A stretch of 39,258 bases of DNA from a virus (taxonomy: Duplodnaviria > Caudoviricetes): positions 1 to 39,258 of IMG/VR virus record IMGVR_UViG_3300028629_000022. One strand, given 5' to 3'. Both the position numbers and the translations under genes were made by a program. Below are positions 625-38,825 of the stretch, piece after piece; position 1 is the stretch's first letter, and every line of letters begins with the position of its first letter. The notes under the pieces were generated by a model. That model saw only the letters and a program-made list of their open reading frames with translations, did no database searches and was not told where the DNA came from.

Positions 625-1602
625 TCAAGCGAAAAGCGGCAAGGACTTGCTCATCTTCTCGGCTTCGATCTTCTCCGGTGTCGGTGTGCTTTCTTCGTCC
701 TGGTACGCCGTCTTTTCCTTCAAGCCCGCACAACACAGGATATAATCGGCGGCCTTCTGTGCCTTTCCAGCTGCGCGAAAAAGGGTGTCGGGCTTGTCCT
801 TGAACATCTTAACCCATGTCGCTAGATATGCCGTATGTTCGTGGTGGTACTCGTACCCACAAAAGGCGGCAAGGAAAGCGCCTCCGATTTCCGCGACTAG
901 TTCTTCAAAGGCGCGGCCTTCCCCCTGGTAAACGTGGGGCCGATTGGCGCGATCCTTCGGGGCCGTCCAATGTGTCAGCTCGTGAAAGGCCGTCGAATAG
1001 AACGCTTCATCCGATTTCCAGGCCGTTCGCTCCGGTAGTTCGATTAGGTCCTTGGCGGGGCAAAAGGCGGGCTGGTTTCCGCGATAGAAAATCCGGGCTC
1101 CGCTCATTGTCAATATCCGCTCGGCTGTCTCGTTCGGCTTCAATTCGCGGGCCTGGGTCTTTCGTGGTTTCAATCCTTCCGTTTGATCCAGGTTGAAAAC
1201 GATGTAAGTTTTTACCCAAGCGCGGGTTTTCCCGCCTGGGACGGGCTTACCGTCCTTGTCTGTTTCGCGGTCAAAGGACCAGAAAAAGACGGGGCTTCCG
1301 TGTTCACCCTTCTTGATACGGCCTTCACCATCCGCGCATTGCTTGAAGGTAAGCCATTGCTCGGACGTGTATCTCCTTTTCTCGCTCGTCCAAGCGAGGG
1401 AAAGCGTATTCATCCCGTTGTAGGATCTCCCGGTTTTCCAATTCATCATGCCACGGGAAAACCACGGCTTTTCCCACGGCGGGGCCTCTCCCTTTTCCAT
1501 GCTTTCGATTATGTTTTTGACAAGTTCTTCCATTTTAGCGCCCATGTCTTGTATCTCCTTTCCAGTTAGTTTTATCCCATTGTGGGGGTTATCGTCCGGC
1601 AT
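625..1602 (-). CDS. ardC: ArdC-family anti-restriction protein (ssDNA-binding N-domain plus zincin-like metallopeptidase domain)
   Basis: Motifs PPWEKPW, YNGMN, WLTFKQ, IKKGEHG, VFNLDQTEG, FHELTHWT (HExxH) and AFEELVAEIG are characteristic of ArdC. Confidence 0.9.
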   Translation of the reverse strand: MPDDNPHNGIKLTGKEIQDMGAKMEELVKNIIESMEKGEAPPWEKPWFSRGMMNWKTGRSYNGMNTLSLAWTSEKRRYTSEQWLTFKQCADGEGRIKKGEHGSPVFFWSFDRETDKDGKPVPGGKTRAWVKTYIVFNLDQTEGLKPRKTQARELKPNETAERILTMSGARIFYRGNQPAFCPAKDLIELPERTAWKSDEAFYSTAFHELTHWTAPKDRANRPHVYQGEGRAFEELVAEIGGAFLAAFCGYEYHHEHTAYLATWVKMFKDKPDTLFRAAGKAQKAADYILCCAGLKEKTAYQDEESTPTPEKIEAEKMSKSLPLFA

Positions 1603-1862: not shown

Positions 1863-2228
1863 TCAGGCGTTTGCGGCTTCGAGTTTCAATTCAAGGGCAA
1901 CTTGGTCCCGGCCCCGGTCCTGGGGATCCTCCTCGGGGGCATAGTCGGGGTGGCAAAGTGGGAGGTTTCCGCACTCCATTTGCATCCCGCAATCGTCGGC
2001 AAGTTTACAGGTACAACAAGGGCAATCCTCGGTATGATCGGTAGCGTCACCGCAAGCGGGGCACGTTGGCGGCTCATCTTCCTGCGTGTCTCGGGCGTGG
2101 AGGGGGTCGCAAGTGCGGCAAAGGATTCCGTCGAGCGTGTCCCGGTATGGGCGGCCTATACGGCCCGGGCGGTCGGGGTCCGGGGCCTGCGCTCCTACTG
2201 GCTGGTGGCAAGCGGTGCAAGTGGTCAT
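1863..2228 (-). CDS. Cys-rich putative zinc-binding protein (121 aa)
   Basis: AGGAGG SD at 2241-2236; multiple CxxC pairs (CTAC, CRTC, CPAC, CPCC). Confidence 0.7.
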   Translation of the reverse strand: MTTCTACHQPVGAQAPDPDRPGRIGRPYRDTLDGILCRTCDPLHARDTQEDEPPTCPACGDATDHTEDCPCCTCKLADDCGMQMECGNLPLCHPDYAPEEDPQDRGRDQVALELKLEAANA

Positions 2229-2252
2229 CTGGCGGCCTCCTGTTAGTTGTGT

Positions 2253-2304
2253 GGTTTCGGCCTTGGTAGCGGCCTCATCAGCGGGGGCTTTACCCCCGGA
2301 CCCC
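2253..2304 (-). ncRNA. type III hammerhead ribozyme (candidate)
   Basis: Minus strand reads GG-GUC / stem I CGGGGG-UAAAG-CCCCCG / CUGAUGA / stem II GGCC-GCUACCAA-GGCC / GAAA-CC. The conserved core is complete, stem III is short, and the site is intergenic. Confidence 0.8.
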
Positions 2305-2317
2305 TTGCGGGGTCTGT

Positions 2318-2569
2318 CTACTGCGTCAGGTCCAACGTCCGATAACCCATTGACGCGAAGTCCTCGAGGGCCTTGAGGCTTGATAACAGCGTGTCAAGGT
2401 GAACAACGCGAAGCGCCCCTGTACCCCTGCGGAACGTGATCGAGTACGTCCCGCCGACTGTCTCGCGCATAACGGCGGCCTTGGGTTCCACGACCGACGA
2501 CCCTTGGCCAAACGGCCTAGGGTACCCCGACTCCCGCCTTGTGCTGGTGTTCCTGCTGATGGTCTGCAT
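2318..2569 (-). CDS. hypothetical protein (83 aa), first gene of the leftward early operon
   Basis: GGAGG SD upstream; lies just downstream of a sigma70-like promoter. Confidence 0.65.
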   Translation of the reverse strand: MQTISRNTSTRRESGYPRPFGQGSSVVEPKAAVMRETVGGTYSITFRRGTGALRVVHLDTLLSSLKALEDFASMGYRTLDLTQ

Positions 2570-3588: not shown

Positions 3589-4308
3589 CTCTATTTGACT
3601 ATACGCTGTTTCCTACTTCCTGCCGTTCGCCTGTAACCTAATACATCCGATAGGATACCTTATGGTGTACGCTGTGCCGTGATCCCTTCGCCGTGACGAA
3701 TGGATACCAGTCTAGGCCGTGAATTCCGATTCGGTTTTATGCGTAATTATACCGTCGCGCTACGCTGTGCATCCCGCGACCGAAGGGAGCGGGGCCGTTG
3801 CTGTACACGCTAGGCCCCACCCCCCCGTTCGGATTGCCCCACCGGGTAGATTCATTTGACTTTACACCTAGGCCAACGCGCACATGGGGGTAAGAAACCG
3901 CCGGGAGGGAGGGGTAAGTTCGGGAAGTGCAGGGAGCGCTGGTGTAATTGTCGCTGTAATTATTCTTCGGCTAATTTTGGAAAGTTCGGCAGAATTCGGC
4001 TACAAAGAGGTGACAAATAGGGGTGTCAGAAAGTATTTGTCAAGGTTGGGGTACATGGCAATAGTTTGACACAGGTTTCATGAAAGAGAATTAAACTGTT
4101 TAAGTTGTTGTTTATGAGGGAGAAAGTGCGAAGTCGCCGAATTTTACCGAACTTGCCGAAAATCGCCGTTAGATATAGTTGTAGTTGTAGTTGTAGTTGT
4201 AGTTGTAGTTGTAGTTGTAGTTAGAGTTATAAAAACTACTAGTAGTGCTGTTGTAGTAGGTAGTGCTGTTAGGACTGAATCCAAAGACGATCGATTCTCG
4301 ATCGATGA
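3589..4308. other. long non-coding region with repeats, candidate pac/terminus and/or replication origin
   Basis: No convincing ORF; TACGCTGT x3, CTAGGCC x3, ATTTGACT x2, a switch from C-rich to G-rich, a long inverted repeat and a microsatellite. Confidence 0.45.
4176..4222 (+). repeat. (TAGTTG)n microsatellite, 7 full copies plus TAGTT
   Basis: Read directly from the sequence. Confidence 0.95.
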
Positions 4309-38142: not shown

Positions 38143-38648
38143 TACGCGGCCTCGATCTCGGAAAGGTGGCAAGTCTTGACGGAAGCCGACAAGGGTATGC
38201 CTTGCGCGTTGCGGATCTTCCCGTTGTGCTTCGCGTCAACGTGCGCTCCAAGGGTGGGGAACATAACGCGGACGGTCTGCCGTTGGGGGTCGTAGGTATG
38301 AAGGAAGGCGTAACCCTTTCCGATCTCTCGCCACCACTTGAGGACAACGGCCGCGCGGCCGTGCTTGACGATGAACGGAAAGGGCTTTGCGCGTCCCTTC
38401 TGGCTGTTGTAGTAGCGGCGAACCTGGGCGCGGTTGGGCTTCGGCCCGGGCTTGTTCGGCTTGTAGGGGCCGGTTGGCGACGGGATCTTGATAACGTCCT
38501 GTTGGTTGTGTTTTCCATTTTTGATCGCGGCGCGGTTCTTGGTGAAAAGGTTCTTTGCCTTGCTAATCAGCGTTTGAATGAACATTTTTGTTCGTCCTTT
38601 CTTGGTGAAAAGGTTCTTTGCCTTGCTAATCAGCGTTTGAATGAACAT
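38142..38648 (-). CDS. basic hypothetical protein with duplicated 21-aa N-terminus
   Basis: GAAAGGA SD at both in-frame ATGs (38648 and 38585). Confidence 0.65.
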   Translation of the reverse strand: MFIQTLISKAKNLFTKKGRTKMFIQTLISKAKNLFTKNRAAIKNGKHNQQDVIKIPSPTGPYKPNKPGPKPNRAQVRRYYNSQKGRAKPFPFIVKHGRAAVVLKWWREIGKGYAFLHTYDPQRQTVRVMFPTLGAHVDAKHNGKIRNAQGIPLSASVKTCHLSEIEAA

Positions 38649-38672
38649 TTTTGTTCGTCCTTTCTTGGTGAA
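38536..38672. repeat. 63-bp tandem duplication (2 copies plus 11 bp)
   Basis: Units start at 38536 and 38599; TTCTTGGTGAA recurs at 38662. Confidence 0.95.
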
Positions 38673-38825
38673 GGTTGGTAAAAGCCGCGTGTGCTAGTAT
38701 GGCAAGGGCGGCGGCTCGTATCCCTATTCGCTTCCGTTTCGAGAGTAGCGCGGCCTCAGCTCGTTCCTGGGGCGTCAGGGAGCGCCAAACCCGGCAATGC
38801 GGGAAGCGGGTTTTAAGTTCGTGGT

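Follow-up and report, generated by a model that had tools for sequence, protein, structure and literature searches.

Can a hammerhead ribozyme still cut when a hairpin holds its cleavage triplet, and how would such an arrangement arise? A short intergenic element of a tailed phage raises both questions. The window, the whole stretch of DNA that we analysed, is a complete record of 39,258 bases with genes for terminase, a P22-like portal and the major head protein; the sequencing runs that hold most of it are activated-sludge metagenomes. The element is probably a chimera of type II and type III hammerheads. Our tentative answer to the first question, to which we give somewhat less than even odds, is that a leftover hairpin would block its type III fold, and that the RNA would be cut only while a ribosome at the stop codon opens that hairpin.

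The element and its gene context

A leftward run of small genes begins at 2569. The preliminary description had placed the anti-restriction gene ardC downstream in this run, and the protein families found at 1602-625 agree (Table 1). From the gene content and a promoter-like site we infer that the run is an early operon. The site, seen by eye before the first gene (2657-2630, minus strand), is an extended -10 element with an A/T-rich stretch upstream; it falls below the threshold of a consensus promoter scan, which did not list it.

The first gene encodes 83 amino acids. Its homologue P0002 is 80% identical over 71% and has the same final five residues, and the four differences between L102 and the window come to two synonymous codons and one change from V to I. 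Judged by this homologue and the substitution pattern, the gene upstream of the hammerhead is real. The hammerhead itself lies between the first two genes of the operon, two genes before ardC. Co-oriented phage genes flank it, a Shine-Dalgarno (SD) sequence and AUG follow directly downstream, and the anti-restriction gene is nearby. It is a single copy: a descriptor scan for types I-III and the Rfam models found no second hammerhead in the genome.

Judging by the available part of PMC3088659, both the hammerhead class and this gene context are already known. Perreault et al. (2011, PMC3088659) describe there hammerheads between prophage genes, next to ardA, with activity both in vitro and in E. 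coli. Another of their hammerheads precedes an early-gene AUG by 13 nt. The role proposed for intergenic phage hammerheads, as far as the accessible portions of PMC3088659 and PMC6765202 go, is the cutting of polycistronic RNA. Like the examples described in those portions, the window copy lies between co-oriented genes, near an anti-restriction gene and before an SD and AUG. It differs from the ardA-flanking hammerheads of the same part of PMC3088659 in being single instead of one of several, and in its association with ardC, not ardA.

The CUGANGA and GAAA motifs and an NUH triplet are all present in type III order. The preliminary description had claimed a full type III core, and its sequence and coordinates hold; the core lies at 2302-2253. 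The Rfam search that it had proposed does find Hammerhead_3, at 2306-2249, with 32 bits (E 4.4e-4, 4.4 kb searched), below the gathering score of 48.5. No Rfam family reaches its gathering score anywhere in the window, and Hammerhead_II gives no match to the 5' part of the element. These models also missed most of the phage examples tried, with one hammerhead hit in six loci. The bare core pattern occurs in the window at chance level (3 matches against 2.25 expected). Hence we count the element as a real hammerhead because stems I (6 bp) and II (4 bp) are present, both closed by loops and both part of the minimum free energy (MFE) structure. The proposed cut between 2299 and 2298 is the one predicted by the hammerhead consensus and by the Rfam alignment.

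Table 1. Features of the hammerhead locus and its surroundings.
Feature	Position	Strand	Basis or remark
ardC anti-restriction gene, downstream part of operon	625..1602	-	Pfam ArdcN and MPTase-PolyVal; PHROG anti-restriction
A/C-rich leader, SD (2240-2236) and AUG (2228) of Cys-rich gene 2228-1863	2226..2252	-	Sequence
Core GAAA (2258-2255) and 3' strand of 3-bp type III stem III	2253..2258	-	Sequence, Rfam
Stem II hairpin, 4 bp (2274-2271/2262-2259), 8-nt loop with last base A; type III-like	2259..2274	-	Sequence, Rfam
Core CUGAUGA	2275..2281	-	Sequence, Rfam
Stem I, 6 bp (2298-2293/2287-2282), 5-nt loop with first base U1.7	2282..2298	-	Loop length and sequence type II-like
Predicted cleavage site after GUC, C17 = 2299	2298..2299	-	Hammerhead consensus and Rfam alignment
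GCAA-loop hairpin, 6 bp, pairs GUC triplet	2299..2314	-	Folding and sequence comparison
Likely remnant of type II 5' arm (stem II strand and GAA), one substitution and two A lost	2314..2320	-	Inferred; comparison with TAGACC
TAG stop of upstream gene, then 3 nt, then hairpin	2320-2318	-	Sequence
First gene of leftward operon, 83 aa, no family	2318..2569	-	Strong SD 2583-2577; TAG 2320-2318, 3 nt before hairpin

Predicted competition between the hairpin and stem III

To place the element among its relatives we used type III cassettes from scans of viral contigs. The scans gave at least 258 cores (stem I ≥5, stem II ≥3). There were 245 with sufficient flank, a GUC triplet and stem III ≥3, and 201 after removal of those 85% alike. 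These 201 are among the matches listed, and the window is one of them. That the motif class is real follows from a scan of viral contigs by sequence alone: of the 84 distinct cores that it gave, 75 also have stem I and stem II (the other 9 were dropped). Covariation also appears outside the pairs used for selection: 16.4-15.4 is Watson-Crick in 160 of the 201 listed cassettes and in 56 after shuffling.

Cassettes made of a stop codon, a hairpin, a hammerhead and a leader are common in phages, at least 201 distinct ones having been collected. An SD and start lie within 45 nt downstream in 119 of the 201 listed (null 12). An upstream hairpin of -8 kcal/mol or better is present in 108, compared with 21 after one shuffle, and in 59 of the 140 listed cassettes that bear a hairpin its last base is 5-6 nt short of C17, so that stem III is barely left free. 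In ordinary cassettes this separate hairpin likely releases and protects the 5' product.

In the window the hairpin is not separate. The preliminary description had proposed that it competes with a stem III of about 3 bp, and so it does in the predicted folds: stem III is limited to 2302-2300 paired with 2255-2253, and the GCAA hairpin dominates both the MFE and the centroid structure (z -3.26). A short stem III is no special sign, and we rejected it as such, as 33 of the 201 listed cassettes also have 3 bp. Compared with the type III family (RF00008), the window shares the core, the GUC, closed stems I and II, U1.7, the final A of loop II and the strand order. It departs from that family in its 3-bp stem III, whose 5' strand is locked in a 6-bp hairpin, in its score of 32 bits and in a type II-style loop I.

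How strong is the block? If stems I and II are kept in place, the predicted cost of stem III is 8.9 kcal/mol in the presence of the upstream sequence and 0.3 kcal/mol without it. This is the strongest predicted block of the 201 listed cassettes; an earlier measure, applied to 184 cassettes among the matches listed, gave 10.7 for the window, rank 3. The pair G2314:C17, in which G12 stands opposite C17, is alone worth 3.2 kcal/mol to the hairpin. We considered a three-strand stem III, formed by partial invasion, as an easy path to activity and rejected it: invasion of 1, 2 or 3 pairs with the rest of the hairpin kept costs 9.7-10.8 kcal/mol and is thus no cheaper. Because the hairpin contains the triplet and the block is about 9-10 kcal/mol, the bare RNA is predicted to be off. 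The published examples, in the available part of PMC3088659, cut during in vitro transcription, whereas the window copy is predicted not to.

Such gating is not a family trait. The median difference across the listed cassettes is 0.2 kcal/mol, and only 12 of 201 reach 4 kcal/mol or more. Dominant captor hairpins occur in 15 of the 201 listed (null 9.6 +/- 3.2) and stronger ones in 12 (null 4.7 +/- 2.5).

Loop I U1.7 and the last A of loop II are the bases of the hammerhead loop-loop tertiary contact. The window has both, as do most listed relatives (152 of 182 for U1.7 and 158 of 199 for the A). A further contact that had been suggested, GGUA at the edge of stem I with UACC in loop II, can be drawn on paper but did not stand up to comparison. 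It occurs in 4 of 180 listed relatives, the number expected when partners are swapped (3.9). L010 has the same stem I edge without it, and in contig X6 (depth 3.7) a change at 2266, which may be an error, breaks it. Complementarity between loops I and II of the window amounts to only 2 bases.

Probable origin of the element from two hammerhead types

Where does the blocking hairpin come from? Its bases 2313-2300 match exactly a hairpin that serves as stem III in type I/II hammerheads of phages. A viral scan seeded with the hairpin (a sample of about 280 stretches) yielded 109 distinct contexts. In 66 of them the hairpin is stem III of a hammerhead, which belongs to type I in 40 and to type II in 26. 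A further 21 are terminator-like and 22 are other contexts. In an unseeded type II set the same hairpin accounts for 3 of 99 stem III hairpins, which makes it the second commonest.

The bases before the hairpin point the same way. Among the sampled type II hammerheads with this stem III hairpin, TAGACC followed by GAA is the commonest 5' arm (7 of 26), and the window's arm differs from it by one substitution and two missing A. The upstream stop of type II cassettes lies 6 nt before A15.1 in 17 of 84 and 9 nt before it in 19 of 84; in the window the distance is 4 nt. A 5-nt loop I is present in 65 of 97 type II hammerheads, compared with 21 of 181 of type III. Loops I that differ from the one in the window by at most one mismatch number 22 among the 97 type II and 2 among the 181 type III hammerheads (p 2e-9).

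Three features, the hairpin, the damaged 5' arm and the loop I of 5 nt, agree with type II hammerheads of phages. We therefore consider it probable that the 5' half is of type II, the 3' half of type III, and that the two meet near CUGAUGA. The hairpin would then most likely be stem III of a decayed type II hammerhead, and the spacing to the stop codon was likely inherited from the type II cassette. We propose that recombination near CUGAUGA took place between two cassette types that use the same kind of intergenic site. The useless 5' arm would then decay, and one substitution and the loss of two A would leave G12 opposite C17.

A type II fold is now impossible: there is no pairing between the 5' arm and the stem II strand, and the GAA is gone, two A being missing. 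Stems I and III of the type II layout are both closed. Set against type II hammerheads (RF02276 and the available part of PMC3088659), the window shares the closed stem III hairpin, a stem I with a 5-nt loop and a stop codon that runs into the beginning of the 5' arm. It differs in that this arm is unpaired with the stem II strand and without GAA, and in having a type III 3' arm. The dead arm, 6 nt long, carries both inferred changes, whereas the 11 bases of the core have stayed intact, a post hoc comparison with a chance probability of about 0.12.

Type II hammerheads are themselves abundant in viral contigs, with about 970 stretches estimated for one pattern (L601, L723, L730, L756 and others). 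In 63 of 84 cases a stop codon precedes them by 5-10 nt, and TAG or TAA often overlaps the 5' arm, so that translation could interfere with type II hammerheads too. Of 232 type III loci, 10 have both types on the same strand; intact duals of types II and III numbered 0 of 151. One locus with two type II hammerheads (L035) also carries, at 2480-2550, a type III hammerhead preceded by what may be the remains of a type II arm.

The variants of the window's element suggest that cassette edges are recombination joints, although each case is a single contig. X4 keeps 2252-2800, while 399 other letters replace the next two genes, so that the swap lies right at the 3' end of the hammerhead. X6 (depth 3.7) keeps 2165-2335, and its upstream sequence differs from six codons before the stop; by eye, 30 letters of it are open in the frame of the same stop. 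Both contigs keep hairpin and core, and in a near-identical genome the element is unchanged. With about 99% identity among all the variants seen, selection could not show itself, so the intact core says little. A search for diverged homologous loci, where covariation could be sought, found only the near-identical genome; DNA for P0002 was not found, and annotated phages gave no match. A 151-nt contig from an RNA library (run X10) crosses the cut site with 21 nt on one side; it may be DNA and was not counted, and this run covers mainly the capsid region.

Elsewhere in the genome, the intergenic piece 263-322 (a small hairpin, a short direct repeat and an SD before ORF 266-24) has different flanks in runs X3, X7, X8 and X10. 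We propose that it is a reused leader or a cassette joint, since it is shared by contigs with different flanks. Contigs with positions 1-297 have depths of 94-944, much higher than the remainder of the phage. A six-base microsatellite, whose copy number may vary, lies at about 4170-4225, just upstream of the gene for the large terminase subunit, and a direct repeat of about 62 bases at about 38575-38675 (minus strand) duplicates a gene start.

Possible opening by the ribosome, alternative readings and meaning

Could a ribosome lift the block? When nucleotides behind the stop are hidden, the remaining block falls from 8.9 kcal/mol to 4.8 with 5 nt hidden, to 0.5 with 7 and to 0.4 with 9. Hiding 7 nt thus removes the block in silico, and ribosome-dependent cleavage is feasible. 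This upholds part of the switch put forward in the preliminary description: a terminating ribosome could free the triplet. That hairpin and stop were arranged as a switch is not required, because a hairpin that is most likely stem III of a decayed type II hammerhead would account for both its presence and its distance from the stop with no selection for switching. Dependence on translation may be a by-product of the chimeric origin.

A ribosome unwinds about 5 nt past a stop codon in the A site and covers up to about 9 nt. With 6-7 nt needed, opening is borderline. Attenuation, too, works through an intergenic structure opened by the ribosome. In translational coupling, as treated in the available part of PMC4538824, the structure is likewise one that a ribosome can open, and the window hairpin resembles it in lying next to a stop. 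The output in the window would be self-cleavage, not initiation or termination. The coupling model in that part of the paper leaves out structures that do not reach into the coding sequence or the stop codon, and the window hairpin starts 3 nt after the stop, without overlap.

Captor hairpins lie near a stop more often than the hairpins of ordinary cassettes (9 of 11 against 6 of 60 among the matches listed, p 3e-6). When bulged stems are allowed, the listed comparison becomes 9 of 11 against 26 of 59 (p 0.045), and without stop overlaps p is 0.12. A short distance from stop to hairpin is general among cassettes, and the statistics depend on how a hairpin is defined.

According to the gated reading, then, a ribosome terminating at TAG would hold the hairpin open and the type III fold would cut. 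Afterwards the hairpin would re-form on the 5' product, making the cut irreversible and capping the end, and the downstream message, with the Cys-rich gene and ardC, would start with stem I. The predicted folds bear out the earlier suggestion that the products would end and begin in hairpins. Predicted accessibility of the downstream SD does not clearly change upon cutting.

Did such elements arise more than once? We regard as somewhat unlikely the wider proposal that hybrids repeatedly left a second stem III strand at the upstream stop, so that cutting of a message would require translation of the upstream gene. Its basis is the 17 of 201 listed cassettes with a closed stem III upstream of the type III core (null 4.6 +/- 2.1, maximum 11 in 300 shuffles). 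Among the 11 listed double-stem-III cassettes with a called stop, the stop is at most 5 nt away in 9, and in 5 its last A is the first base of the hairpin. In 13 of the 16 others listed, the 3' strand has at least 5 bp and is able to displace the hairpin, and loops I are mostly type III-like; the window copy may thus be a one-off.

A chimera of the same origin might also be silent, which is only a little less likely than the gated reading. The ribosome would then open the hairpin too little or too briefly, and the element would be a non-cutting spacer of three hairpins and a leader that has not yet decayed. The block speaks for silence, being the strongest among the 201 listed and about 10 kcal/mol by every invasion path, and so do a stem III of only 3 bp where similar cassettes have at least 5, and loops I and II that come from different parents. 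Yet the core, U1.7 and the last A of loop II are intact while the 5' arm has decayed, and the block is gone with 7 nt hidden.

It is improbable that the element cuts constitutively, with tertiary folding or cellular helicases beating a hairpin whose sole role is to release and protect the 5' product. In favour, neither tertiary contacts nor Mg2+ enter nearest-neighbour models, most listed cassettes have a strong hairpin upstream, usually with its end 5-6 nt before C17, and the reading is plausible for cassettes with a 5-7 bp exchange. However, hammerhead tertiary folding likely repays a few kcal/mol, the penalty of about 10 kcal/mol exceeds this likely repayment, and the hairpin is transcribed first.

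Very improbable is an ordinary type III cassette in which a terminator-type hairpin happens to include the triplet, possibly as a selected sensor of translation: the G-form hairpin is often terminator-like (with a U-run in 21 of the 109 sampled contexts, often just after stop codons), so an origin outside type II is conceivable, and in the unseeded type II set another arm is commoner than TAGACC, but the type II-like loop I and the arm match would be left unexplained, and none of 33 sampled G-form contexts is followed by a hammerhead core.

The chimera that we favour resembles the non-circularly permuted hammerheads of Eckert et al. (2023, PMC10085705), in the available part of that paper, in that both are natural rearrangements of hammerhead blocks. 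The window instead keeps the standard type III order with a duplicated stem III strand, and its block order does not fit that class, which we therefore rejected as an assignment. In the main texts of the open literature, as far as searched, we found no type II/III chimera with a self-block, and no description of a natural hammerhead switched by a terminating ribosome.

According to the accessible portions of PMC6765202, what hammerheads do in phages and bacteria has yet to be settled. The element offers a test of 90 nt: can a terminating ribosome switch a natural hammerhead? Even if silent, it is likely a snapshot of conversion between hammerhead circular permutations, by way of the recombination of phage gene cassettes. 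If the wider proposal of repeatedly formed gated hybrids is true, phages could tie the processing of anti-defence messages to the translation state of their host.
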